Assembly: GCA_964361095.1 (NCBI GenBank)
Contig: CAYHZA010000001.1
Location: 1,456-65,455, forward strand
DNA: 64,000 nt
Direction: 5' to 3'
DNA from: an uncultured Candidatus Saccharibacteria bacterium
GTDB lineage: Bacteria; Patescibacteriota; Minisyncoccia; UBA6257; 2-01-FULL-56-20
Shown here: piece by piece, positions 1 to 55,775 of the stretch
Layout of the letters: every line of letters begins with the position of its first letter
Position numbering within the stretch: the stretch's first letter is position 1
The notes under the pieces: model-generated
What the model was told of the DNA's origin: nothing
The model's database searches: none
Seen by the model: the letters and a program-made list of their open reading frames with translations, nothing else
Program-made: the position numbers and the translations under genes

Positions 1-141
1 AAATCTCGAAAGCCATTCGAGCTTGTATACTACGAAGCGTATAAGTCAGAAAGTGATGCTAGAAAAAGAGAGGCCAGCTTAAAGTTGCGAAGTCGAGCAT
101 TCGCACAATTGAAGAAACGTATAACCGACAGCACCAAGTAA
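1..141 (+). CDS. GIY-YIG nuclease (YhbQ/UPF0213-like), C-terminal fragment; 5' end lies beyond the window edge
   Basis: Frame 1 translates to KSRKPFELVYYEAYKSESDARKREASLKLRSRAFAQLKKR... This aligns with the C-terminus of the complete GIY-YIG ORF at 30512-30772 (RRPFELVYYEAYRAEDDARTREHNLKLRSNALNQLKRRLKK). Stop TAA at 139-141. Confidence 0.55.
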   Translation, partial: KSRKPFELVYYEAYKSESDARKREASLKLRSRAFAQLKKRITDSTK

Positions 142-154
142 TTTGGTGTGGGGG
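142..154. repeat. Right terminal inverted repeat TTTGGTGTGGGGG of the GIY-YIG mini-element family
   Basis: Immediately follows the GIY-YIG stop codon. Same arm as 222-236, 8486-8498 and 30765-30782. Confidence 0.6.
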
Positions 155-161
155 TAAACTT

Positions 162-389
162 ATGTCAAAGGAAATCGCCACTAAAACTGAGAAAGAAATT
201 CACCCCCACACCAAAGGGATTTTTGGTGTGGGGGTGTGCATCAAGTGCAAGAAGTGTGGCACTAAGGTTCTTTCTATTACGCGCGGTAGTTTAACCCCAT
301 GTAAGTGTGGGGCTATTTCTGTCGATGGCTCTAAAGAGTTAGTGAGAGTTATCGGTAAGCCAGAGGATTATGAAGAAATCCACAAATAA
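162..389 (+). CDS. Small zinc-ribbon protein (CxxCxxC...CxC) carrying an in-frame 36-bp palindromic insertion
   Basis: 75-aa ORF with Cys pairs CIKCKKCG...PCKCG. Codons 14-25 (HPHTKGIFGVGV) are encoded by the palindrome at 201-236. No clear RBS. Confidence 0.35.
   Translation: MSKEIATKTEKEIHPHTKGIFGVGVCIKCKKCGTKVLSITRGSLTPCKCGAISVDGSKELVRVIGKPEDYEEIHK
201..236. repeat. Solo (empty) hairpin copy of the CCCCCACACC element: cacccccacaccaaa-gggatt-tttggtgtgggggtg
   Basis: Perfect 15-bp inverted repeat with a 6-nt loop. Length 36 is a multiple of 3 and sits inside ORF 162-389. Confidence 0.7.
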
Positions 390-432
390 ATTTATGGCAA
401 GGAAATTATCAATAAAGTGGTAAAATGAAGGT

Positions 433-1281
433 ATGGCAAAAACTATAAAAATATTTTTGATTGACGGCGAACCTAACGGCCTAAAAACCGCTGAATTAAG
501 TAATTGGGTTGGTCAAGCAATCGTTATTCCTAGAAATAAACTTAAAGAAATAAAACAACGCCCTGAATGTAACAAGCCAGCAGTTTATTTTCTGATCGGT
601 AAAGAGAGCGAAGAAGCACTCTTGCCTACTGCATATGTAGGAGAGGCAGAAAATTTATGGAATAGACTATCTACTCATGATAGCTCAAAGGATTTTTGGC
701 AAACCGCAGTAGCGTTTGTGAGTAAAGATAATAATTTAACAAAAGCCCATGTTAGGTATCTTGAGAGTAGATGCTTAACTTTAGCAACTAAAGCAAAAAG
801 GTTTAATTTAGAAAATGGCACAGAATCATCTTTACCTTCTTTATCTGAAGCAGATATTGCCGAGATGGAAGAATTTTTGGAAAACCTGAAACTTTTGTTT
901 TCTGCTCTTGGCTACCCAATTTTGCAAGAAGTTATTTCTAAAGAACAAAAAAATATATCAGACCCTCTTTTTACTTGTAGGGGCAAAGATGCTTTAGCAA
1001 CTGGTCGTATGACAAACGACGGCTTTGTTGTTTATAAAGATTCAACCGCAACAACCGATATTTCGAAGGCAGTTATTGATCGTAATCAAAAAATTATAGA
1101 AAAGTTATTAAAAAATAATTATCTCGAAAAATTAAATGACGGCTTATATATTTTTGTTAAGGACTACGTCTTTAATAGTCCCAGTGCCGCATCTGATATT
1201 ACACTAGGCAATTCTACTAGCGGTTGGAAAAAATGGAAAACGGAAAGTGGCAAGACATTAGAAGAGGTTTATAGAAAATAA
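433..1281 (+). CDS. GIY-YIG (T5orf172-like) nuclease with C-terminal DUF4357-like domain
   Basis: N-terminal motifs VYFLIGK...AYVGEAENLWNRLSTH (GIY...YIG...R...H). The C-terminal tail SPSAASDITLGNSTSGWKKWKTESGKTLEEV matches the DUF4357 pattern as I recall it. Confidence 0.6.
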   Translation: MAKTIKIFLIDGEPNGLKTAELSNWVGQAIVIPRNKLKEIKQRPECNKPAVYFLIGKESEEALLPTAYVGEAENLWNRLSTHDSSKDFWQTAVAFVSKDNNLTKAHVRYLESRCLTLATKAKRFNLENGTESSLPSLSEADIAEMEEFLENLKLLFSALGYPILQEVISKEQKNISDPLFTCRGKDALATGRMTNDGFVVYKDSTATTDISKAVIDRNQKIIEKLLKNNYLEKLNDGLYIFVKDYVFNSPSAASDITLGNSTSGWKKWKTESGKTLEEVYRK

Positions 1282-1283
1282 AT

Positions 1284-3095
1284 ATGGGAAAGCTAAAAGA
1301 CATTCCAAAAATTGATAGACCGCGCGAACGATTCCTCCAAAAAGGAGCTGACGCACTTTCAAAAAGTGATCTTTTGGCAATTCTTTTAGGCAGTGGCATA
1401 AAAGGTAAAAATGTCAGGGAACTTTCAGAGAGTATTATCAAAAAATTTGGCAAAAACTTTTTAAATATAACCGTTGATGATCTTTTGGAAATTTCAGGGA
1501 TTGGCCAAGCCAAGGCATTACAAATTACTTCTGCAATTTCTTTGGTAAAAAGATTCTATGCGGACGAAAAATCAAACGAGACTATTATTAAAAATTCTCA
1601 AGATGTCCTATCATTCACCTACGATTTAAGAGATAAGAAAAAAGAACACTTGGTTTGTTTATACCTTAACGCAAGAAATTCTCTCCTCAAAAAGGAAATT
1701 GTTAGCGTAGGCTTACTAGATAAAACATTGCTCCATCCAAGAGAAATTTTTTATCCGGCAACAGAATTAAACGCCGCTAGTGTTATTTTAATTCACAACC
1801 ACCCATCGGGCGATTCTTCGCCAAGCGAAAAAGATAATCAAATTGTTGAAAAAATAGTTCAAGCAGGAGAAATAATGGGAATACCTGTTATTGATTTCAT
1901 TATTATCTCCGAAAATAATCATTATAGTTTTTATGAAAAACTAAGAAAGCAAAAAGAGACTTTTGATTATGTCGCTGACGGAATACAAGGGACACTCTTT
2001 GCAATATTTGAAGCTGAAAAACCAGCCTATGAAATAACTGCTGAAAAAATTCAAGAAAATTATTTCTACATCCCACAAGTAAAAGAAAATCACATCCAAT
2101 TACATAATCGCAGATATATAGGAAATAAACACAAACTAATTGAATGGATTTTTTCTATTATAAACAAAGAATGTAGTGGAAATTCTTTTGCAGATGTTTT
2201 TGCTGGGACGGGGGCTGTATCTGCTGTGGCGACAAAACACTTTAAAAAAGTATTATTAAATGATTTTTTACATTCCAATTACATAATATACCGTGCCTTT
2301 TTTGGAAAAGAAGCGTGGGACAAAAATAAGATAGATAGCATTATTAAGAGCTATAATAATATTTATGGCGGAGATTTAGAAGATAATTATTTTTCCAAAA
2401 ACTTTGGCGGTAAATTTTTCAGCAATAATTCAGCTAAAATTATCGGCTTTATTAGGGAAAACATTGAAGAAAACAAAAACAATTTAACGGAAAGAGAATA
2501 TTTTATGCTGATTGCGTCATTGCTTTATACGGCTGATAAAATCGCTAATACCGTTGGACATTTTGATGCTTATTTTAAAAAAGATTTTGTAAATGATAGT
2601 TTTTTCATGAAACCGATTGATCCGATTGATACCCAAGAAATATCTATTTTTCAAGAAGACACGAATGTTCTGGCAAAAAAGATAAAAGCAGATGTGGTTT
2701 ATATTGATCCGCCCTATAATTCCAGACAATACAGTCGTTTTTATCATGTACTTGAAACATTGACCAAATGGGATAAGCCAAAACTTTATGGAGTTGCGCT
2801 AAAACCAGATCCAGAAAATATGAGCGATTACTGCCGAGCTAATGCCAAAGAAAAATTTGCAGAACTTGTGAGAGATATTGATGCTCAATTTTTGGTTGTT
2901 TCGTATAATAATACATACGATTCAAAAAGTAATTCATCAAAAAATAAAATCACACTTCAAGAAATTGAAAAAATCTTACAAGCAAAAGGTAAAACGAAAG
3001 TTTTTGAAAAAAATTACAGACATTTTAATGCCGGTAATACAAATTTCAATAATCACAAAGAGTATTTGTTCGTAACTAAAAACCAACATGAATAA
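1284..3095 (+). CDS. Fusion protein: N-terminal RadC/JAB (JAMM) domain plus C-terminal Dam-like (D12 class) N6-adenine DNA methyltransferase
   Basis: RadC motifs include the HNHPSGDSSPSEKD JAMM signature and the helix-hairpin-helix-like ISGIGQAKA. The methyltransferase half has RRYIGNKHKL (Dam N-terminal motif), FAGTGAVS (motif I) and DPPY (motif IV). It is one continuous 603-aa ORF. Confidence 0.7.
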   Translation: MGKLKDIPKIDRPRERFLQKGADALSKSDLLAILLGSGIKGKNVRELSESIIKKFGKNFLNITVDDLLEISGIGQAKALQITSAISLVKRFYADEKSNETIIKNSQDVLSFTYDLRDKKKEHLVCLYLNARNSLLKKEIVSVGLLDKTLLHPREIFYPATELNAASVILIHNHPSGDSSPSEKDNQIVEKIVQAGEIMGIPVIDFIIISENNHYSFYEKLRKQKETFDYVADGIQGTLFAIFEAEKPAYEITAEKIQENYFYIPQVKENHIQLHNRRYIGNKHKLIEWIFSIINKECSGNSFADVFAGTGAVSAVATKHFKKVLLNDFLHSNYIIYRAFFGKEAWDKNKIDSIIKSYNNIYGGDLEDNYFSKNFGGKFFSNNSAKIIGFIRENIEENKNNLTEREYFMLIASLLYTADKIANTVGHFDAYFKKDFVNDSFFMKPIDPIDTQEISIFQEDTNVLAKKIKADVVYIDPPYNSRQYSRFYHVLETLTKWDKPKLYGVALKPDPENMSDYCRANAKEKFAELVRDIDAQFLVVSYNNTYDSKSNSSKNKITLQEIEKILQAKGKTKVFEKNYRHFNAGNTNFNNHKEYLFVTKNQHE

Positions 3096-3993
3096 CAAAA
3101 TCAAAAGGTCCCCGTTATTTTATGTCGGGGATAAATACAAACTAATGAAGCAATTGGTAAATTTATTTCCCAAAGAAGTGAATAATTTTTACGAACCTTT
3201 TGTTGGCGGAGGCACTGTATTTTTGAACATTGAAGCGAAGAAGTATTTTTTAAATGACATAAACAAACATCTGATTAACATACATAAGTTTTTGATGAAA
3301 AGCGCAGATAATCCAAGCTCGTTTTTTAAAAGCGTTGGAAAAGTAATATCCAAATATAAATTATCCAAATCTTACAAAGAAGATATAATTCCAGATTCAC
3401 TAAAAAAAGAATGGAAAAAAACTTATTTTGCCCGATTTAACAAAGAGGGATACGAAAAATTGAGAGTGTGTGTGAATAATAACAAAAAAAATGACCCTCT
3501 GATTTTGTATATTTTGCTTATATACGGGTTTAACAGAATGTTGAGATTTAATGGTGGTGGCAAATTTAATCTGCCTGTCGGGAATGTTGATTTTAACAAA
3601 AATGTAGTTAATGCCCTAAATGGCTATTTTGATTTTGTAAATAATAAGAAAATCACAATTACATCGAATGATTTTAAAAAGTTTTTTTTAGAGAAACAAT
3701 ATTTTAAAAATGATTTTGTTTATTTAGATCCGCCCTACTTAATAACCGCAAGCGAATATAATAAGTTTTGGGATTCAAAATCTGAATCTGACTTGTTAAA
3801 CTTAATCGATAATTTAGACAAAAGAGGCGTTAAATTTGCTTTATCAAATGTTACACATTACAACGGAAGCAAAAATGACCTTTTGATAGAGTGGATGGGA
3901 CAATATAAGGTACACAAAATTGAAAGCAACTATATTAGCTATCACAATAATGGGAAAAAGATAATCAAAGAAGTCTTGATCACTAACTATTAA
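3088..3993 (+). CDS. Dam-like (D12 class) N6-adenine DNA methyltransferase
   Basis: FYVGDKYKL N-terminal motif, EPFVGGGTVF (motif I), LDPPY (motif IV). Overlaps the upstream ORF by 8 nt, so operon-like. Confidence 0.75.
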   Translation: MNNKIKRSPLFYVGDKYKLMKQLVNLFPKEVNNFYEPFVGGGTVFLNIEAKKYFLNDINKHLINIHKFLMKSADNPSSFFKSVGKVISKYKLSKSYKEDIIPDSLKKEWKKTYFARFNKEGYEKLRVCVNNNKKNDPLILYILLIYGFNRMLRFNGGGKFNLPVGNVDFNKNVVNALNGYFDFVNNKKITITSNDFKKFFLEKQYFKNDFVYLDPPYLITASEYNKFWDSKSESDLLNLIDNLDKRGVKFALSNVTHYNGSKNDLLIEWMGQYKVHKIESNYISYHNNGKKIIKEVLITNY

Positions 3994-3997
3994 AATT

Positions 3998-5515
3998 ATG
4001 AAAAAACGACAATCCGAATATAAACCATTATTATTTACGACAACAATGAGAAATCCTGAACGACTAAAGGATTTTTTAACCGTGCTTGTTGAATATGATG
4101 GCGAAATTTTAACAAACGAAATTATTGATAAAGTAGCTAAAATCTTGATTCAAAAAGGGTTATATCAACCCATGAAAATAACGCAAGTAGTAAAAGGTAA
4201 ATGGAAAAACGAAATAGAACTAAGCGAGGCTGAAACCGAAAAAGTATTTGATGAGAATCCGCAAAGCCATAAAGAGGCAGGTTTTGAAAAAGGTTGGCCA
4301 TCGAGATTTGATACTTGGTTTAAAATTGCCAAAGAACTTGGTTTTGTTTGGTATTGGCCAAATGAAGAAATAAAATTTTCCGAAAGCGGGAAAATGCTAT
4401 TGGATAAAGAAAAACCTGAAAACGAATTGATGGTTTTTGCTAATGCTTTCGCAAAATATCAGCGACAAAATCCGTTTCGTAGAGTTTTAAATAAAAATGT
4501 ACCATTGATATTGCTGATACAAACAATAAAACTCCTAGACAATGACCCTGCCTATAATGGCACGGGTATTTCAAGGTTAGAAATTCCGTTATTGCTCTGT
4601 TGGCAAAATGATAATGCCGAAAGTTTATATCGTGAAATAAAAAAGTTGCGTAAAAAATATGGCTATTCGCCAAGCAATGAGATAGTTTTAGATCTTTGCT
4701 ATGAATTATTAAACGAAACCAAAAGAGACGATAATTCTATCTTAGGTGATTATCCCGATGATTTTATTCGCAAAATGCGTTTAACTGGTTTATTTTCTTT
4801 GCGTGGTGGCGGTCGTTTCATTGACATCAACACAAAAGAAATTGCGACTGTAAATTATATTTTAGAAAATTATATTTCTTATCCAACCTTTACGACTGAA
4901 AAAGATTATTTTGATTATATTGGCAAAGTGGACACCAATTTGATTGCAACGCTCTCCGTCTATGAAACTCCTGTTAGAACTACTAAAGCGGAGTTGGAAA
5001 AATGGGTAAATCATTATGCGTGGGAATCAATTAAAACCGAGATGCTTAATTTAGCGCAGAAAAAATCTTCCGAAGATGATATTTTGCGGGTGATAGAACA
5101 GCCTTTGCGTTTAGAGTTTTTAACCTCTTTGGCTATTCTCAAAAAATTACCAAATGTTGTAGTAAAGCCAAATTTTGTTTCAGATGATGAGGGTTTACCG
5201 ACAAGCTTTGCTTCTGGTGGAAACCCAGATATTGAATGTCTAGAAGATAAGGACACCGTATTGATAGAAGTGACTTTACTAACAGGCACACAGCAACATA
5301 TTAGAGAGTCATTTTCAGTACACCGACATCTTGAGGAGTATGTAAAGAAAGGCACTAAATCATATTCTGTGTTTATCTCCCCCAAATCTTTCATTGATAC
5401 TGAACGCTATTTTGATTTTATCAAAAAGGATGGTTTGGAAGTGAGAATTTCGAATATCGATAAATTCGTCCTCGGTCTTGAAGAAAAGACAACATTGAAC
5501 GAAGCGACTTTATGA
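3998..5515 (+). CDS. Candidate restriction endonuclease (type IIS-like, family unassigned; possibly AlwI-like)
   Basis: 505-aa ORF starting 5 nt after the second methyltransferase gene. The C-terminal segment GGNPDIECLEDKDTVLIEVTLLTG resembles a PD-(D/E)xK core. Two same-strand N6A methyltransferases upstream are typical of asymmetric-site type IIS systems. Family assignment is by context and memory only. Confidence 0.35.
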   Translation: MKKRQSEYKPLLFTTTMRNPERLKDFLTVLVEYDGEILTNEIIDKVAKILIQKGLYQPMKITQVVKGKWKNEIELSEAETEKVFDENPQSHKEAGFEKGWPSRFDTWFKIAKELGFVWYWPNEEIKFSESGKMLLDKEKPENELMVFANAFAKYQRQNPFRRVLNKNVPLILLIQTIKLLDNDPAYNGTGISRLEIPLLLCWQNDNAESLYREIKKLRKKYGYSPSNEIVLDLCYELLNETKRDDNSILGDYPDDFIRKMRLTGLFSLRGGGRFIDINTKEIATVNYILENYISYPTFTTEKDYFDYIGKVDTNLIATLSVYETPVRTTKAELEKWVNHYAWESIKTEMLNLAQKKSSEDDILRVIEQPLRLEFLTSLAILKKLPNVVVKPNFVSDDEGLPTSFASGGNPDIECLEDKDTVLIEVTLLTGTQQHIRESFSVHRHLEEYVKKGTKSYSVFISPKSFIDTERYFDFIKKDGLEVRISNIDKFVLGLEEKTTLNEATL

Positions 5516-5553
5516 TTGTAAAAAATTAGAATCAATTTACGAGAGCTAAATTT

Positions 5554-7461
5554 ATGGAAGATATTAAAGCAACAATTCACGGAGACGCTACAAGTGATCA
5601 AATTGAAGCAATTGACCACATTGGCAGTCATGCAAGATTACTCGCTGGACCCGGAACGGGAAAAACAAAAACGCTTACTCGGCGCGTACTTTCTTTGATT
5701 CTCCAACATAATGCCGACCCCGATTCAATTCTCTTACTTACGTTCACTCGTTTAGCCGCCGCTCAACTGAAAGATGAGATCAAAAAAGTGTTAGAACCTT
5801 TGGGCAAAACCATTCCACAAGTATCAACGCTTCACTCCTTTGCATTAAGGCAGATTCTTTATAATTCGAGCAGAATTGACACATTACCAAGACCAATCAG
5901 AATAGCCGATGACTGGGAAGAACGGTATATCATTCAAGAAGATTTAAAAAAAGTTTTAAATCTCAAAGAAATTGGCGATGTTCAAAAATTGATCAATCAG
6001 CTTTCAACTGACTGGGAAACTTTGAGAATTGATGAAATTGGCTGGGAGCAACAATTTCCAAACCCCGCTTTTCTTGGTGCGTGGCGAAGCCACAAAGATC
6101 AATATGGCGAAACACTAAGGGCGGAACTTGTTTATCAACTGAAAAAGCAGTTAAACCAAAGCAGGGATTTTCAATTAGACAAAGAGTATAAACATATTCT
6201 GATTGACGAGTATCAAGACCTGAACGCTTGCGATCTTGCCATAGTCAATGAATTAGCAAAGCGAGGCGCGGAATTATTTGTTGCGGGAGATGATGACCAG
6301 AGTATCTACGGCTTCCGTTTCGCAACCCCCGCAGGTATAAGAAATTTTGAACAGATATATCAAAATTCCAAAAAATTGGCGTTAGAAATATGTTTTCGTT
6401 GTGATAAAAACATATTACATTCAGCAGAATTTGTAGCGAGCCTTGATCCTGCACGCTTGCCAAAACCAACACGACCAAAAGACGAAGCTGAAGATGGTGA
6501 GGTTTTGATAATTGGTTTTAAGGATCAAAGTCATGAAGCTGAAATTATAGCCAAGAAAATAAAAAGTTTGATTGACGCAGACATCAAGCCAGATCAAATC
6601 ACAATTTTACTAAGAAACGACCGAAACAGCTTATTATCCAAGCCGATTATTGAAGCCCTAAAAAAGTATAGCGTCGATGTATCTTTGACGACTGATTCGG
6701 AATTAGAAAATAACAAGGAGTATCGAACAGTTTTATCAATAATTCGTTTGTTGGTTGATCAAAATGATTGTTTAGCTTGGCGAACATTATTACAAATCAA
6801 CAAAACTAATGGCTTGGGCGATGAGTGTATAAAAAGTATATGGAATTATGCGCAAAGCAAGGGAATACGTTTTAGTGTGGCTTTACAAAAAATAGCCGAA
6901 TCTCCAAGCGAATTACAAAAGTTTGGCCAAAAAATAGCAAAATTTGTTTCCGAAATAAACGTGGCAATCGTGGAACTCAAAGCCATTGAAAGTCCGACCG
7001 AAGCGATAAACGCAACAGTTGATAAATTTATGGGTGAAGGAGAGATAAAAGAACAAGTGAAAAAATATTTTGTTGGAATTTTGGAGAATCAAGAAAAACC
7101 TGATCTTGAGAATTTAATTAAAATAGTAAGTACTTCGTCGGAATATATTGAGCAAGAAACAAAAGAAAACGCTGTTAATATACTCACTATGCACCAAGCA
7201 AAAGGATTATCTTTTGATGTATGTTTTATAGTTGGTGCGGAAGATGAATATATTCCCGGACGAAATACAGGAGATAAGGAGGGCGATGAAAGAAGATTAC
7301 TGTATGTGTCCATGACAAGAGCGAGGCATAAATTATTTATCAGCTATTGTAATAAACGAACCGGACAACAAAGACATTCAGGAAGTAATAGCGGAACAGA
7401 AAAAAGAACATTAACCAGATTTCTTAGAGATTCCAAAATCCCAATAAAACAGGTAGAATAA
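5554..7461 (+). CDS. UvrD/PcrA-like superfamily-1 DNA helicase
   Basis: Walker A AGPGTGKT. Motifs LLLTFTRLAAAQL, DEYQDLN, and the C-terminal ILTMHQAKGLSFD...RRLLYVSMTRARHKL. Confidence 0.8.
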   Translation: MEDIKATIHGDATSDQIEAIDHIGSHARLLAGPGTGKTKTLTRRVLSLILQHNADPDSILLLTFTRLAAAQLKDEIKKVLEPLGKTIPQVSTLHSFALRQILYNSSRIDTLPRPIRIADDWEERYIIQEDLKKVLNLKEIGDVQKLINQLSTDWETLRIDEIGWEQQFPNPAFLGAWRSHKDQYGETLRAELVYQLKKQLNQSRDFQLDKEYKHILIDEYQDLNACDLAIVNELAKRGAELFVAGDDDQSIYGFRFATPAGIRNFEQIYQNSKKLALEICFRCDKNILHSAEFVASLDPARLPKPTRPKDEAEDGEVLIIGFKDQSHEAEIIAKKIKSLIDADIKPDQITILLRNDRNSLLSKPIIEALKKYSVDVSLTTDSELENNKEYRTVLSIIRLLVDQNDCLAWRTLLQINKTNGLGDECIKSIWNYAQSKGIRFSVALQKIAESPSELQKFGQKIAKFVSEINVAIVELKAIESPTEAINATVDKFMGEGEIKEQVKKYFVGILENQEKPDLENLIKIVSTSSEYIEQETKENAVNILTMHQAKGLSFDVCFIVGAEDEYIPGRNTGDKEGDERRLLYVSMTRARHKLFISYCNKRTGQQRHSGSNSGTEKRTLTRFLRDSKIPIKQVE

Positions 7462-7508
7462 CAATAGAAATTTAAAGTCCGCCGAAAAGTTTTGGGGGCA
7501 AAGCCCAA

Positions 7509-7561
7509 GCAGGCGGGCAAAAAGGAAGGGGGTTGGGGGGAAGGAATTTTTGCTCGCCTGC
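7509..7561 (+). terminator. Hairpin with G-rich loop downstream of the helicase gene (possible terminator)
   Basis: gcaggcgggcaaaaa ... tttttgctcgcctgc (14/15 bp) enclosing the loop ggaagggggttggggggaaggaa. No clear T-tract. Confidence 0.3.
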
Positions 7562-7609
7562 TTCCGTTCCCGTCCCGTTTGAGCAAAGAAAAATGATAAA
7601 ATAACTTTT

Positions 7610-8392
7610 ATGAAAATCAAATCAAAACCACAAATCCTAGAACGGCGGAAAGAGATCGAGCAGGAGCTCTTGGATATGCTCAAAGAAACAGAGAGCGATT
7701 TTACTCTGGATCATGTCCGGGACGTTATTTTCCATGAGGAAGACAACGACGACATGATGAAAGTCGTAGCCATGTTTGATCGCGGAGGAGACGCTTCGGA
7801 ATTGAGTAATGTTCTTGAACTCGTAACCGACGCCTGGAATTACTTTCCACATAAAGTGCTTGGTGGCATCTCTCCGGCGGAGAAATTACTAGAGCACCAC
7901 AATAAAACTAAACTTATGAAAATCAACAACACATTCAAACTCATCATCGCTATCATAGTCTCCGAGCTTGCCGGTATCATCGGCTCGGTGTTTACCACAC
8001 CATCCATTGCTGGCTGGTACGCTGGGATTGCGAAGCCTGCTCTTAATCCTCCGGCGTGGGTATTCGGACCGGTCTGGACGACGCTCTTTGCGCTCATGGG
8101 CATCGCGGCCTTTCTCGTCTGGAAGAAAGGGCTGGATCGCAGAGATGTAAAAATCGCTCTTGGCATATTCCTCGGCCAGCTGGTCTTGAACACGCTTTGG
8201 TCAATTATCTTTTTCGGTCTGCATAGCCCCGGCGGTGCGCTGATTGAGATCGTATTCCTCTGGCTCGCCATTCTCGCCACGATCGTTGCGTTTTATAAAA
8301 TCTCCAAACCGGCGGCGTGGCTTCTGGTGCCATATATTCTTTGGGTCAGTTTCGCGATGTACTTAAACTATGCGATCTGGGCATTAAATTAA
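7610..8392 (+). CDS. tspO: TspO/MBR family membrane protein with ~100-aa N-terminal hydrophilic extension
   Basis: C-terminal 160 aa read WYAGIAKPALNPPAWVFGPVWTTLFALMGIAAFLVW, LGIFLGQLVLNTLWS and WLLVPYILWVSFA. This is typical of TspO. Confidence 0.6.
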   Translation: MKIKSKPQILERRKEIEQELLDMLKETESDFTLDHVRDVIFHEEDNDDMMKVVAMFDRGGDASELSNVLELVTDAWNYFPHKVLGGISPAEKLLEHHNKTKLMKINNTFKLIIAIIVSELAGIIGSVFTTPSIAGWYAGIAKPALNPPAWVFGPVWTTLFALMGIAAFLVWKKGLDRRDVKIALGIFLGQLVLNTLWSIIFFGLHSPGGALIEIVFLWLAILATIVAFYKISKPAAWLLVPYILWVSFAMYLNYAIWALN

Positions 8393-8468
8393 GCAATTAT
8401 GACTCGGTGCAATTTGCTTAATATTTCTTTAGTTAAGCAAATCGTCCCACGCTCACAAATTTGGTTTT

Positions 8469-10001: not shown

Positions 10002-10027
10002 GCGAAGGTTTTAATTCGGGAGCAATT
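10002..10027. repeat. 21-nt motif GCGAAGGTTTTAATTCGGGAG(+NAATT), copy 2, upstream of ABC exporter gene
   Basis: 21/21 identical to 8889-8909. Confidence 0.5.
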
Positions 10028-10120
10028 GATTTCTGATTATTTTATAATGGGTTTTTGTGCCACTCCGATCGGGCTCAATCTTTTTATTGCTTAGTTTTCA
10101 TGTTTTACTTACTAAATAGG

Positions 10121-12322: not shown

Positions 12323-12439
12323 ATTAACCGCGCCAGCAAATCCAGAAGATGGACACTTTGACCTATCTATCGTATAGTTTTTCAAGTATAATCAGAAAAA
12401 TCATATACCTATCCACAAACTCTGCGGAGGATTATCGAC

Positions 12440-13619: not shown

Positions 13620-14021
13620 ATGAAGCCGGTTAATAAGGTAAAAATCGACTTAGATAAAAAGTTCCAAAAGGTGATAGAAACACCGGCGGGTTTTGATTTC
13701 TTTGTGGCAATTCATGATTTCGTTGAACACATTGAGTCGAACGCATCGCTTTCCGCCAGTCTTTCGTCCCGCGTGAAATTGAACCAAGAATTGAATATTC
13801 CCAATAAATACGCTTATTTGAAACAGATCTATCAAGGGCTCGAAGATGCCGAAACGAAATCAAATGCCGATTTGGGTCATGCGAGATACGCGGTGCTCAT
13901 AGAACTGAATCGGATCCGTGGCAAAGAGGTTTCGGAAAGCAATTCGTTTTGGAAAAAACGGGAACTGTTCAGGAGATTGACGAGCGAAATCTACCAGAGA
14001 TTGAATCCCACTACGGTATAA
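13620..14021 (+). CDS. Hypothetical protein
   Basis: 133-aa ORF followed by hairpins and a terminator. Confidence 0.45.
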   Translation: MKPVNKVKIDLDKKFQKVIETPAGFDFFVAIHDFVEHIESNASLSASLSSRVKLNQELNIPNKYAYLKQIYQGLEDAETKSNADLGHARYAVLIELNRIRGKEVSESNSFWKKRELFRRLTSEIYQRLNPTTV

Positions 14022-14023
14022 AT

Positions 14024-14090
14024 CCCGTTAGAAATCCGCCCTGTCTTGCTACGGGCGGCAGTTGCCTTTGGGAGGCTTGTTTCTAACGGG
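14024..14090. repeat. Long hairpin CCCGTTAGAAA...TTTCTAACGGG (member of the CCCGTTA-type palindromic repeats)
   Basis: 11-bp terminal stem around a structured 45-nt interior. The stem motif is related to the hairpins at 8556 and 8692. Confidence 0.45.
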
Positions 14091-14097
14091 ATAAATA

Positions 14098-14130
14098 AAA
14101 AATACCCCCGATTATCGGGGGTATTTTTTA
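14098..14130. terminator. Bidirectional rho-independent terminator aaaaaataccccc g-attat-cgggggtatttttt
   Basis: GC stem flanked by an A-tract and a T-tract. Lies between the convergent genes 13620-14021 (+) and csp (-). Confidence 0.7.
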
Positions 14131-14142
14131 AGTGTCAGCGAT

Positions 14143-53814: not shown

Positions 53815-53953
53815 CGAGTCGACCTTTCTTTGGATGATATACGTATCATTGTATCATTTTGAAACCAGGAAACAAACGCGCGGAATACTTTGAAAATAGA
53901 AAGAAAAACCGCGGCATGTGATGTGCCGCGGGGAAAATAGAGGGAATCGTGAA

Positions 53954-54283
53954 TCATCGATGCGCAGTGGCGGTTTTTGTCTTCTCGATTTGGCTTTCGA
54001 TCTCTCGCCATGTGTCCGACGAGCGGTTTCGCACATCTTCGAGTTTTCCGCGTCCTCTTCGCCGGTAGAGGATGAAGCAGAGCTGGCGGCTTTCCTTGAT
54101 GAAAGTTGCTTCTTCGTGGGCGTGGAGTTGGATTACCAACGGATTTCTTCCGCCCGTGGTGCGAAGCACCTCAAAGCAATTCTCATCCACATCTCCACGG
54201 TGTCTCAAAAAGTCGACGATAGCTTCATTCGTTGCTTGATTCCTCGGTTCGACGTACCAGCGGGTTTCCTCATCTTTCGCCAC
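53954..54283 (-). CDS. Hypothetical protein (GTG start)
   Basis: 109 aa. RBS gaggag 8 nt upstream of GTG. Confidence 0.3.
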   Translation of the reverse strand: MAKDEETRWYVEPRNQATNEAIVDFLRHRGDVDENCFEVLRTTGGRNPLVIQLHAHEEATFIKESRQLCFILYRRRGRGKLEDVRNRSSDTWREIESQIEKTKTATAHR

Positions 54284-54390
54284 GATTATTCTCCTCTCGA
54301 GAGAAAAGTTTTTATACGTTGTGCTGACAATAGGGGAGCTATTATTGATACTAAAGAAAAGAGAGTTTTTTGTAAATTACCTGCTTTTCC

Positions 54391-54480
54391 CACCCAAAGC
54401 GGAAGGTGGATGCCCCGCCCATGGCGGGATTGCTGTTTTCTAAATTCGCTTTGCTTATTAAGAAAACAGGGAAGATTCTT
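54391..54480. repeat. Degenerate duplicate of the tRNA-Ser flanking region with the tRNA body deleted
   Basis: cccaaagcggaaggtgga ... tgctgttttctaa...ttaagaaaacaggga parallels 54613-54640 and 54725-54775. Confidence 0.5.
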
Positions 54481-54540
54481 CCCGTTCGGTACAAATCTTT
54501 GATTTGTTAACCGAACGCAATCCCGCTTCGCGGGAGAACC

Positions 54541-54600
54541 TCTACCGATTTTCCCGAACATTGCGGTAGGGGTGAGATTCGAACTCACGATACCATTTCT
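54541..54600 (-). other. tRNA 3'-half-like fragment (stem-loop plus T-arm GTGAG-TTCGAAT-CTCAC plus acceptor-3'-like strand) lacking a 5' half
   Basis: Minus-strand read ...CTATACCAGAAATGGTATCGTGAGTTCGAATCTCACCCCTACCGC. No D-arm or 5' acceptor strand is found. Confidence 0.4.
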
Positions 54601-54626
54601 GGTATAGCAGTTTTCCCCGCCCAAAG

Positions 54627-54713
54627 CGGAAGGTGGAGGATTCGAACCTCCGAAGCTGTTTCCAGCTTACCGCATTTCAAGTGCGGCGCATTCGTCCACT
54701 CTGCCAACCTTCC
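54627..54713 (-). tRNA. tRNA-Ser (anticodon TGA), type II with long variable arm
   Basis: GGAAGGT acceptor stem, 3-bp D-stem, anticodon loop CTTGAAA, variable hairpin, T-arm GGAGG-TTCGAAT-CCTCC, discriminator G. 12-bp leader/trailer complementarity. Confidence 0.85.
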
Positions 54714-54958
54714 GCTTTGGGCGGGACTGCTTTTTTCTAAGCTCATCTTATTCGCTAAGAAAACAGGGAGCAAGACTGCCGCCTTCAACCCTTGCCCGCC
54801 AAAACTTTGGCGTCGGCGGGACTCGGCCACCCCACCCGCTTGCTTTATTGTTAGTGAAAAATAAGAAAATTACAAATTCCGAGGGTGGCATGGAATGAAG
54901 CTCCGATGCTTCGATCGGAGCACAAAAAAAACCCTGAGTATTCGGGGTTTTCTTTTTG

Positions 54959-55029
54959 TGGACCTACGGGGAATCGAACCCCGATATCACGCATGCCATG
55001 CGTGCGCTTTACCACTAAGCTATAGGCCC
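54959..55029 (-). tRNA. tRNA-Ala (anticodon GGC)
   Basis: GGGCCTA acceptor with the G3:U70 identity pair. Anticodon loop ATGGCAT. T-arm CGGGG-TTCGATT-CCCCG. Upstream promoter TTGCAA-17-TACTAT. Downstream terminator. Confidence 0.85.
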
Positions 55030-55151: not shown

Positions 55152-55775
55152 ATGAGAAAGTTGGCGGCTGGAACAGTTTCGAAAATTAAGACGTTTCGGA
55201 GGCACGGGTTTAGCATTCCAGAAATCAGCAGGAAACTTCTTATCCCTAAGTCTACAGTATTCCGTTATATCCAGGGCGTAGCGATCGCCCCGGAATATTA
55301 TCAACGCTGGCAAGATCGTAGAAACGCGAGCAAAATCATCTCGTTGCGTAATTGGCAGATTGCCGAAAAGAATGCGAAAGAAATGTTGCCCCGCATCACA
55401 AAAAGAGAAATGGCGATTATGGGGGCAATGTTATACTGGGGCGAGGGATCAAAAGGAGACTTTAGTTTTTCCAATACCGATCCCCAAATGATAAGATTTT
55501 TTCTGAAAATCCTTCGAAGTGCATTTGGAATAAAAGATTCCGAAATAAAAGTTTCTTTAAGAATCTATGAAGATCTCGATCGAAAAAAATGCTTAAAGTT
55601 TTGGTCAAAAACAACCCGCATTAAATTAGACTCTACAACTTCAATCAACGTACTGAAGGGTTCTAAGAAAGGAAAACTAAAATACGGCATGTGCAGAATC
55701 CGAGTTCGAAAGTCGGGGTTGCTTTTGAAACAAATTTTGTCCATTATAAAGTTGCTTGCCGAGACGCCCTCGTAG
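55152..55775 (+). CDS. HTH plus LAGLIDADG-like (single-motif) homing-endonuclease-like protein
   Basis: N-terminal HTH FSIPEISRKLLIPKSTVFRYIQG. Core AIMGAMLYWGEGSKGDFSFSNTD...IRFFLKILRSAFGIK resembles the LAGLIDADG helix-strand pattern (LxxGxGDG variant). The stop codon overlaps the first nucleotides of tRNA-Arg. Confidence 0.45.
   Translation: MRKLAAGTVSKIKTFRRHGFSIPEISRKLLIPKSTVFRYIQGVAIAPEYYQRWQDRRNASKIISLRNWQIAEKNAKEMLPRITKREMAIMGAMLYWGEGSKGDFSFSNTDPQMIRFFLKILRSAFGIKDSEIKVSLRIYEDLDRKKCLKFWSKTTRIKLDSTTSINVLKGSKKGKLKYGMCRIRVRKSGLLLKQILSIIKLLAETPS

Follow-up and report, generated by a model that had tools for sequence, protein, structure and literature searches.

Within the window, as we call the whole 64-kb stretch of DNA analysed here, an intact tRNA-Ser(UGA) gene, W3, lies inside the anticodon loop of another tRNA-Ser(UGA) gene, W2, which is itself interrupted a second time in its D-loop. 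All features of the locus are on the minus strand and are arranged as 5' half, whole tRNA W3 and 3' half, followed by a body-deleted unit that we named unit B. The nested anatomy is evident, both junctions are exact, and the break between G35 and A36 recurs in relatives. We think the chances slightly better than even that the locus is a nest of tRNA-Ser(UGA) copies, produced by repeated site-specific insertion of a cassette into resident tRNA-Ser genes, which left split relics. The host lineage comprises tiny groundwater bacteria.

The outer tRNA-Ser gene is split at two points

When 54821-54836, 54771-54790 and 54564-54614 were joined in silico, we obtained a flawless 87-nt class II tRNA-Ser(UGA). 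ARAGORN called the joined pieces as tRNA-Ser(tga) with a perfect cloverleaf, and a tRNA-Ser profile from which W2 had been left out gave them 43 bits (E 2e-12). Pairing is complete in the acceptor stem (GGTGGGG/CCCTACC, 7/7), the anticodon stem (GCAGT/ACTGC, 5/5) and the D stem (GCC/GGC, 3/3). Both the T-loop (TTCGAAT) and the D-loop have canonical form, and CTTGAAA makes up the anticodon loop. W2 has no damaging substitution and the gene shows no decay.

Piece 1 of W2 (54821-54836) consists of the acceptor 5' strand GGTGGGG, TG, the D-stem strand GCC and the start of the D-loop, GAGT. It is followed by a 30-nt GC-rich insertion (54791-54820; CCCGCC GACG CCAAAG TTTTGG CGGG CAAG) with a perfect hairpin inside (54797-54812), and removal of this insertion leaves a canonical D-loop, GAGTGGTTGAA. 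The insertion resembles an 'empty' version of the inverted repeat that leader and trailer form around W3. Piece 2 (54771-54790; tRNA-Ser profile positions 16-35) holds the rest of the D-loop and D-stem, the anticodon stem 5' strand GCAGT and CTTG, from C32 to G35. A 156-nt block (54615-54770) then separates G35 from A36. Piece 3 (54564-54614) resumes with AAA, the anticodon stem 3' strand ACTGC, the variable arm, the T arm GTGAG-TTCGAAT-CTCAC, the acceptor 3' strand CCCTACC and the discriminator G. The W2 trailer downstream (54540-54563, CAATGTTCGGGAAAATCGGTAGAG) is related to the W3 trailer and belongs to a three-copy repeat (D2), and the sequence after it seems to be what remains of the 3' anticodon arm of an even older copy. 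Upstream of W2, a candidate promoter can be read at 54847-54875 (TTGTAA, 17 nt, AACAAT); it does not appear in the promoter scan listing because it matches just 8 of 12 consensus positions.

Piece 3 is the fragment that the original prediction had described as an orphan tRNA 3' half with no 5' half. The fragment is real: 54615-54564 corresponds to profile positions 35-86 (E 7e-10), and the half by itself scores 18 bits (E 1e-4) against a profile built without it. It is not an orphan, as a recognisable and matching 5' half lies at 54836-54771, upstream of W3, although the two halves are not contiguous and the 5' half is itself split by the 30-nt hairpin. A recognisable 5' half was, in essence, what the prediction itself had named as its refutation. 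In the native sequence W2 was not called by ARAGORN, even with long introns allowed, because the gene is interrupted twice. Roughly a third to 40% of aligned positions differ between W2 and W3, with compensated stems (the 3' halves are only ~60% identical, all stems being compensated). W2 is therefore not a recent copy of W3. A permuted tRNA or two-piece tmRNA was rejected, as ARAGORN found no tmRNA, Rfam found no tmRNA family, and the sequence after 54564 contains neither D nor anticodon arms.

The block in the anticodon loop carries an intact tRNA-Ser

The tRNA-Ser(TGA) reported at this locus was recovered as W3 (54627-54713), both by ARAGORN (start 54626/7) and by the Rfam tRNA model (58.2 bits). 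The block around it, which we call the cassette, is composed of CTCCC, an AT-rich hairpin, a leader (54714-54725, CCCGCCCAAAGC), W3 and a trailer (54615-54626, CTTTGGGCGGGG). Leader and trailer form the left and right arms of a perfect 19-nt inverted repeat (I3, 54616-54634 with 54707-54725), which takes in the W3 acceptor stem, 8 bp of the repeat being W3's own acceptor helix. Leader/trailer pairing adds 12 bp to that stem, and the arms are paired in the minimum-energy fold. Within the AT-rich hairpin lies a putative promoter pair (54734-54761; TTCTTA, 16 nt, TAGAAA), a reading suggested by conserved hexamers and a variable spacer in three copies.

The non-tRNA part of the block amounts to 69 nt only, and the 156-bp insert contains no ORF. 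The insertion junctions carry no target-site duplication and no clear shared or repeated core, and both have a 4-5 nt microhomology to the region of unit B (TCTT at the left junction, GAAAA at the right one). No copy of the cassette was found elsewhere in the 64-kb window or in viral collections, and viral and phage searches with the locus returned generic tRNA-Ser similarity only.

Unit B and the small hairpins

The W3 cassette has a second, decayed copy in unit B (54380-54472). This copy retains the AT hairpin with the promoter-like region and the leader, and then carries CCCGCC-ATG-GGCGGGG (CCCGCCCATGGCGGG, 54414-54428) in place of the tRNA body. The hairpin is followed by the last 11 nt of a W3-type tRNA (TCCACCTTCCG, 54400-54410), the sole exact repeat of a tRNA 3' end at the locus, and by the trailer CTTTGGGTGGGAAAAGCAGG. 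The earlier observation that the tRNA-Ser flanks recur around a short GC hairpin is thus borne out by two repeats, D1 (50 nt, 76% identity, 54423-54472 versus 54720-54769, spacing 297) and D3 (33 nt, 85% identity, spacing 227). The latter holds the two copies of CCCAAAGCGGAAGGTGGA, identical at 54393-54410 and 54620-54637. TCCCTGTTTTCTTA has exactly two occurrences, and the trailer 19-mer, searched with up to 3 mismatches, was found at the two trailer sites only, a count of 2 that was reached in 0 of 100 shuffles. Unit B is 84% identical over 50 nt to the cassette of a related contig, L058 (see below), and 96% identical over the 26-nt 3' end and trailer. In addition, the 5-nt CTCCC at the left end of the insert resembles the CTTCCC preceding unit B.

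Between the W2 trailer and unit B, we identified three hairpins (54469-54535). The first is TCCCGC-GAA-GCGGGA (54521-54535), the second is long and AT-rich (54484-54516), and the third, GGGAAG-AAT-CTTCCC followed by TGTTTTCTT (54469-54483), is terminator-like and homologous to a decayed T-arm and acceptor remnant in L058. Hairpins of the type CCCGCC..GGCGGG occur at this locus only in the 64-kb window, where 0.12 would be expected. A genome-wide family of REP-like hairpins was rejected for the window, as the motif is confined to the locus. A miniature inverted-repeat transposable element was rejected as well: the inverted repeat is present, but without a target-site duplication and without copies outside the locus in the window.

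Broken tRNA-Ser genes in related loci end at the same nucleotide

We compared the locus with three to four related loci. Broken tRNA-Ser pieces on the same theme were found in the Patescibacteria contigs L058, L061 and L051. L061 was found by a protein search with the translation of the tRNA strand across the locus, which gave four proteins and one instance of the nested theme. L051 (Liptonbacteria) came from among the contexts of the CofD/YvcK neighbour, whose nearest relatives are ~63% identical and for which 2 of the 3 contexts examined are not syntenic. W3 is identical in L058 and L061 outside the variable arm.

Wherever a 5' fragment ends in the anticodon loop, its last bases are CTTG, up to profile position 35 (window 54790-54771, L058 1674-1640 and 1589-1555, L061 10054-10073). 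In one L058 copy, T1, a precise 29-nt double hairpin sits between CTTG and AAAATGC. The use of the same break nucleotide in relatives points to a site-specific insertion process. A second site is reused as well, in the D-loop, in the window, L051 and L061. The L051 outer fragment (GGTGAGGCGGCCGAGT, 12371-12386) is 14/16 identical to W2 piece 1; these 16 nt are all that is kept, they are cut at the same D-loop position as that of the 30-nt hairpin in the window, and a leader and a whole tRNA-Ser come directly after them.

The window sequence 54790-54612 is 92% identical to L058 over 180 nt, and in a second alignment the W2 trailer region matches the L058 trailer and the sequence after it at 78% over 117 nt; L058 has no other DNA in common with the window. 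W2 piece 2 is identical at 18/20 positions to the outer 5' half in L058, T2. The outer acceptor strands differ, GGTGGGG in the window versus GGAAGCG in L058, and each pairs 7/7 with its own 3' partner or remnant. In L058, the stretch homologous to 54469-54483 ends in GAATCCTCCCGCTTCCG, which pairs with the T2 acceptor 5' strand. T2 itself is decayed, lacking the 3' anticodon strand and having a damaged T arm, and the acceptor of the L061 outer copy overlaps the end of a coding gene. The histories of the related loci are scrambled, and L058 is not cleanly nested.

We also searched a 596-Gb genome collection with a 17-mer of the tRNA 3' end and trailer and obtained 49 matches, against ~70 estimated by chance. 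These fell in unrelated phyla, and the single Saccharibacteria match had no tRNA. For the 109-aa ORF at 53954-54283 (minus strand), homologues were not found.

The original prediction that the locus is a recombination hot spot agrees with these results: an intact W3, a split W2 and a body-deleted unit B stand at one locus, with small GC hairpins seen nowhere else in the window and relatives that hold further broken copies.

Possible splicing of the split gene

W2 could instead be a working gene with two unconventional introns, the inner tRNA being freed from the excised block, and one precursor would then give two serine tRNAs. We regard this as improbable. It would account for the exactness of both insertions, whose removal restores canonical loops with no duplications, for the lack of damaging substitutions, and for the different outer acceptor halves of the window and L058, each complementary to its own partner. 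Moreover, the predicted fold of the 273-nt W2 precursor (54564-54836; -134.5 kcal/mol, z -8.3) preserves the acceptor stem of the outer tRNA, the T arms of both tRNAs and the cloverleaf of the inner one. However, the outer copies are truncated in L058, L061 and L051, and W2 shares its anticodon with W3 and is therefore dispensable.

Group I introns are known at the unusual position 35/36 of Patescibacteria tRNA genes (PMC13011429). The window resembles these cases in its phylum, in the interruption of the anticodon loop at or next to 35/36, and in being missed by standard tRNA finders. Unlike them, the window insert has no detectable ribozyme core, is more than half taken up by a complete tRNA gene, and lies in a tRNA-Ser gene. 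A group I intron was rejected, since the Rfam core was absent from 54250-54960 (E up to 10) and from the whole window (E up to 0.05), and 69 non-tRNA nucleotides could not accommodate a ribozyme. The U before the 5' splice site and the G as last intron base that are the rule for group I introns would be present only in the shifted register CTT/G...GGGCGGG/GAAA, which is uninformative alone.

Archaeal tRNA genes with multiple introns, and split and permuted ones, rely on bulge-helix-bulge motifs and the archaeal splicing endonuclease (PMC3218864, PMC4390854). As in those genes, the tRNA gene in the window is broken in more than one place, the D-loop and the anticodon loop among them, and GC-rich complementary sequences lie beside the breaks. 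The window differs in belonging to a bacterium, in lacking the motif, and in that the complementary sequences flank the whole inner tRNA rather than joining the halves. By hand inspection, CTTG is opposite AAA in an internal loop, with no bulges staggered round a 4-bp helix, and bulge-helix-bulge geometry at the junctions was rejected. No splicing endonuclease or RNA ligase domain was found among the ORFs scanned in the 64-kb window. Protein-dependent tRNA splicing is not known in bacteria, which also argues against a working W2.

Integrase scars and the search for mobility genes

Partial tRNA 3' copies at the locus had been taken for classic scars of integrase-mediated insertion and excision. 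Such scars would be of the attL/attR type, left by tyrosine-integrase elements that integrated into the 3' part of a tRNA-Ser and were later excised or decayed. We consider this very improbable for the locus, and for the fragment 54564-54614 it is largely refuted. Anticodon-loop crossover is typical of some integrase groups, in keeping with such an origin. Elements commonly integrate into tRNA genes, and the usual scar is a partial 3' copy, a direct repeat of the 3' end of the same tRNA, with a kb-scale element between the complete and the partial copy (PMC9897764). The window is similar in that tRNA fragments adjoin an intact tRNA at a rearrangement-prone locus, and unit B ends with the exact 11-nt copy of the tRNA 3' end and a similar trailer.

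The anatomy is nevertheless different. An integrase event would give a whole tRNA, an element and a 3' repeat, whereas the window has a whole tRNA between a 5' half and a 3' half, and integration at the 3' end does not yield orphan 5' halves. The large 3' fragment does not duplicate the W3 end but was displaced from another tRNA-Ser gene, and it has its own 5' partner upstream with no element between. Unlike att scars, the duplicate in unit B also copies the upstream leader and promoter-like region. The copies are ~230 bp apart, and the stretch between them contains no plausible gene.

Of the ORFs scanned over the 64 kb (those of at least 180 aa in 1-47.7 kb, and selected ORFs together with precomputed gene-call tables for ~46-64 kb), none showed an integrase or transposase domain, and no recognisable homing endonuclease was found in the window. 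None of these three kinds of gene was found adjoining the L051 and L061 loci either. The 207-aa ORF at 55152-55775, considered as a candidate homing endonuclease, gave weak helix-turn-helix matches only; it has no relative among solved structures and no similarity to the ORFs beside tRNA-Ser in two further contigs, L062 and L063, and its single-sequence model (pLDDT 62) had no meaningful fold match. Taken together, the sequence observations of the original prediction and its hot spot stand, while the orphan status of the fragment and the integrase-scar anatomy do not.

Local rearrangement or site-specific insertion

The locus might also have arisen by local rearrangement with no mobile element. 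A tRNA-Ser with its own promoter at the position of unit B would have been copied into the W2 anticodon loop by a template switch at microhomologies, the original would have decayed, and the relatives would have inherited the arrangement or reshuffled it as similar tRNA-Ser sequences recombined in the ordinary way. DNA rich in hairpins and repeats readily undergoes template-switch events. Unit B shares the promoter-like region, leader and trailer with the cassette, the CTCCC at the left end of the insert has its counterpart in the CTTCCC before unit B, and no mobility gene was found nearby. Given the TCTT and GAAAA microhomologies with unit B at the two junctions, a one-off replication template switch could therefore explain the window alone. 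We nevertheless judge this explanation unlikely. L058 and the window together contain at least three 5' halves of different sequence that end at the same nucleotide, T1 of L058 has a different 29-nt insert at exactly the G35/A36 site, and the D-loop site is used in three loci. Chance template switches would not return time after time to the same two positions.

According to the explanation that we favour, repeated cassette insertion, the resident W2 would have been broken twice with precision, once in the D-loop and once at G35/A36. The anticodon-loop insert would be a 156-bp self-contained cassette with W3, a sequence type different from that of W2. W3 would provide the essential serine tRNA, the loss of W2 would therefore be tolerated, and W2, probably non-functional, would survive in the form of two or three relic pieces. 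Further rounds of the process, before and after this one, together with deletions, would have produced unit B, the older 3' remnant at 54469-54563 and the empty leader/trailer hairpins (in the W2 D-loop, in unit B and at 54521-54535). The insertion was probably site-specific, by a recombinase, a homing enzyme or a similar activity encoded elsewhere or now lost. The cassette may be the minimal survivor, or a passenger, of an element that disrupts its target tRNA and carries a replacement.

Several points count against repeated cassette insertion. An undecayed W2 fits only a recent insertion or continued selection on W2. No mobility gene, target-site duplication, clear shared core or further cassette copy was found in the window, the comparison covers just three to four related loci with scrambled histories, and the junction microhomologies would also suit a template switch.

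By analogy, the process resembles tRNA-dependent lysogeny reduced to 156 bp. In tRNA-dependent lysogeny, an element splits an essential host tRNA and carries a replacement of the same isotype, as in actinobacteriophages such as Fionnbharth (PMC10865867). Likewise, W2 is split at G35/A36 with W3 inside carrying the same anticodon, UGA, in the order host 5' part, insert with tRNA and host 3' part, and the target tRNA is not rebuilt. The phage case, however, involves a whole prophage, a tyrosine integrase and a ~10-bp common core (PMC10865867), whereas the window insert is 156 bp without a gene, a recognisable core or viral matches. The window locus also differs in showing one anticodon, and even one target site, more than once.

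A bolder form of the insertion model, tentative and on the unlikely side, is that Patescibacteria harbour a very small mobile unit, a tRNA-Ser(UGA) in a leader/trailer inverted repeat, which inserts without duplication at G35/A36 and in the D-loop of resident tRNA-Ser(UGA) genes and nests in its own earlier copies, the GC hairpins being excision footprints. In a variant of this form, the inserts would represent a novel type of bacterial tRNA intervening sequence, distinct from group I introns and with a tRNA inside it. Such a unit would replace the gene that it destroys, and repeated nesting inside earlier copies would therefore be possible.

Implications for tRNA genes in Patescibacteria

Standard tRNA finders report one tRNA here and miss the split W2, and tRNA counts and 'fragment' calls in Patescibacteria genomes can mislead. 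The locus also bears on gene turnover: an incoming copy inside a resident gene that takes over from it would amount to the in-place replacement of an essential tRNA gene. The break point is the same nucleotide in several gene copies and genomes and coincides with the 35/36 site of group I introns, which hints that a site-specific activity, so far unrecognised, acts on the DNA or RNA of the anticodon loop. Should the cassette prove mobile, few known self-complementing insertion units would be smaller.

The 3′-half fragment is part of a split tRNA-Ser gene

The window belongs to a contig of a groundwater member of the Patescibacteria (CPR), and a stretch identical to its DNA is present in ENA ERZ1292627 (Hain_H51). 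ARAGORN and Rfam agreed on a single tRNA-Ser(UGA) gene on the minus strand (54626/7-54713), here called W3. The YvcK/CofD protein neighbouring this locus has Liptonbacteria-like closest relatives, with ~63% identity.

The original prediction described a tRNA 3′ half near W3 that lacked a 5′ half. The fragment is genuine and matches positions 35-86 of the tRNA-Ser profile, but a matching 5′ half was found immediately ahead of the leader region of tRNA-Ser. On the minus strand, this class II tRNA-like part reads GGTGGGG TG GCC GAGT (54821-54836) and, after a 30-nt interruption, resumes with GGTTGAA GGC G GCAGT CTTG (54771-54790); the 3′ half (54564-54614) begins with AAA ACTGC and ends with CCCTACC G. 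The two parts pair across the acceptor stem (7/7), anticodon stem (5/5) and D stem (3/3), and joining CTTG to AAA gives the anticodon loop CTTGAAA, with anticodon UGA. When the pieces were joined in silico, ARAGORN reported a flawless 87-nt tRNA-Ser(tga), and a tRNA-Ser profile built without this sequence scored it at 43 bits (E 2e-12) and the 3′ half by itself at 18 bits. We named this outer gene W2.

W2 carries two insertions on the minus strand: a 30-nt hairpin in the D loop (54791-54820) and, between G35 and A36, a 156-nt block holding the whole of W3 (54615-54770). Roughly a third to 40% of the aligned positions differ between W2 and W3 while the stems are compensated, so that W2 is a different tRNA-Ser(UGA) gene and not a fresh duplicate.

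Anatomy of the inserts

The 156-nt block consists of CTCCC, an AT-rich hairpin whose arms form a weak promoter-like pair (TTCTTA, 16 nt, TAGAAA), the leader CCCGCCCAAAGC, W3, and the trailer CTTTGGGCGGGG, which is complementary to the leader. Leader, acceptor stem and trailer of W3 together make a 19-nt perfect inverted repeat. The promoter-like hexamers of this cassette are conserved in three copies with a variable spacer; promoter and terminator calls at the locus are at the level of consensus matching only. The predicted fold of the 273-nt W2 precursor (−134.5 kcal/mol, z −8.3) includes the outer acceptor stem, a long leader/trailer helix and the inner cloverleaf, as well as the variable and T arms of W2.

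The D-loop insert (CCCGCC GACG CCAAAG TTTTGG CGGG CAAG) reads like a W3-type leader and trailer minus the tRNA. By their sequence, two more hairpins look like empty leader/trailer copies: CCCGCC-ATG-GGCGGGG in unit B, a second copy of the W3 flanks (54380-54472, minus strand), and TCCCGC-GAA-GCGGGA (54521-54535). The locus is rich in perfect 6-bp GC-rich hairpins (4 in 400 bp versus 34 in 64 kb), and no CCCGCC..GGCGGG motif was found in the window outside the tRNA-Ser locus.

The same break points recur in relatives

Only four related loci were examined. L058 (JGI Ga0155706_101) is 92% identical over 180 nt to window positions 54790-54612, with no further shared sequence beyond this stretch. 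Its W3-type tRNA is intact, and upstream of it are the same cassette and an outer 5′ half terminating at CTTG; the acceptor of this half is GGAAGCG, and its partner CGCTTCC persists ~100 nt downstream beside a damaged T arm. A second 5′ half farther upstream also ends at CTTG. Between its G35 and A36, the site of the window's 156-nt insert, lies a precise 29-nt double hairpin (1611-1639, minus strand; TCCCCC-TAC-GGGGGA plus TCTCCC-GAA-GGGAGA), followed by AAAATGC, the continuation of that half's own loop and stem. Unlike a clean nest, L058 has a scrambled history.

L061 has the same tRNA cluster as the window, on a contig ending 74 nt past the tRNA. Its W3-type tRNA is preceded by GATTGAAGGCGGCGGTCTTG, and its AT hairpin differs from the window's and fits a promoter better (TTGTCT, 17 nt, TAGAAT). 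A decayed outer tRNA-Ser 5′ part carries a hairpin insert (10017-10053, core GCTCAGG-GTCAAT-CCTGAGC) at its D-loop position, matching the window's 30-nt insert in position but not in sequence. At the Liptonbacteria locus L051, GGTGAGGCGGCCGAGT, identical at 14/16 positions to the first piece of W2, directly abuts the leader CCCGCCCAAAGC and a predicted functional tRNA-Ser, that is, at the D-loop site. The more distant L062 and L063 have plain tRNA-Ser(UGA) genes. In the profile search, all 5′ fragments ending in the anticodon loop stop at model position 35, and the window's 3′ half starts at 35/36.

A rival reading, attractive but unlikely, is that W2 is a functional, doubly interrupted gene. 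The two insertions are exact; between the window and L058 the outer acceptor halves differ, yet each pairs perfectly with its own partner; and Patescibacteria tRNA introns occur at 35/36 (PMC13011429). However, we found neither a group I core nor bulge-helix-bulge geometry, the non-tRNA sequence is too short for a ribozyme, and a functional W2 is not needed, given W3. Because outer copies are truncated or decayed in relatives, we regard W2 as a relic, though undamaged in this genome.

Several other features were seen outside the window. In L062, tRNA-Ser(GCT) and tRNA-Ser(TGA) lie 9 nt apart (2148-2334), followed at ~2440-2670 by an ORF that, read from its sequence, is a candidate small GIY-YIG-type nuclease; L063 has a weak LAGLIDADG-type ORF immediately upstream of tRNA-Ser(GCT). 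ARAGORN reported 78-nt tRNA-Ala(GGC) genes with the anticodon at position 36 in L053 (8020-8097) and L054 (2356-2433), unusually long for tRNA-Ala, which might reflect a further small tRNA insertion.

Duplicated flanks and search for a mobilising activity

The predicted duplication of the W3 flanks was borne out. The tRNA 3′ end and trailer recur as a 33-nt repeat (85% identity) that includes 18 nt of exact match, and the upstream side repeats over 50 nt (76% identity); the spacings are 227 and 297 nt, respectively, and both repeats are well above chance. In unit B, a 15-nt GC hairpin (54414-54428) replaces the tRNA body. The proposed integrase att scars (PMC9897764) fit only the 11-nt tRNA 3′ end in unit B, and not the remaining anatomy. 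A single template switch copying from the unit B position would agree with the 4-5 nt microhomologies and the CTCCC carry-over, but leaves the recurrent break points unexplained.

The ORFs scanned across the 64-kb window contained no integrase or transposase domain and no convincing homing endonuclease domain, and neither did the tabulated genes surrounding L051 and L061; there were no target-site duplications and no viral matches. Between tRNA-Ala(GGC) and tRNA-Arg(CCT), a 207-aa ORF (55152-55775, plus strand) combines a weak N-terminal helix-turn-helix with a C-terminal region without a recognised fold; our suspicion that it encodes a homing-type nuclease gained no support.

As for other features of the window, the public gene call crossing unit B (193 aa, 53918-54502, plus strand) looks spurious. 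On the opposite strand, a 109-aa ORF (53954-54283, minus) has a ribosome-binding site, a promoter-like site and a terminator, and no homologue among 5.8 billion proteins. Positions 1-8400 (GC 0.30-0.39 versus ~0.46 elsewhere) code for a restriction-modification island, probably horizontally acquired, with a DUF4357 protein, a RadC-JAB domain fused to a D12 adenine methyltransferase, a second D12 methyltransferase, an AlwI-family endonuclease and a UvrD-like helicase. A weak Rfam Phe_leader match (14004-14131, plus strand; E 0.016) scores 37 bits, below the gathering score of 55, and is probably due to chance.

Proposed origin of the nested gene

A single insertion into one gene would leave matching 5′ and 3′ halves flanking a whole tRNA. 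To obtain this from a tandem array of identical genes, two separate deletions would both have had to stop at the same place in the loop, a far less economical course. Different inserts occupy the same two sites, in outer genes that themselves differ in sequence, and this reuse points to a site-specific process instead of random rearrangement. The insert would bring a replacement for the gene that its insertion destroys. The logic is that of tRNA-dependent lysogeny, in which an element replaces the tRNA gene destroyed by its insertion (PMC10865867), here reduced to 156 bp.

Full-text literature searches turned up no bacterial tRNA gene described as nested within another. The components are already known: fragments of tRNA genes occur at rearrangement hot spots, and some elements supply the tRNA whose gene they disrupt. 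What is new is the combination of a same-anticodon tRNA in the anticodon loop, repeated nesting, a fixed G35/A36 break point together with the D-loop site, and a gene-free 156-bp insert. We consider it conceivable, if rather doubtful, that a small mobile unit of a new kind, or else a novel type of intervening sequence, underlies the locus.
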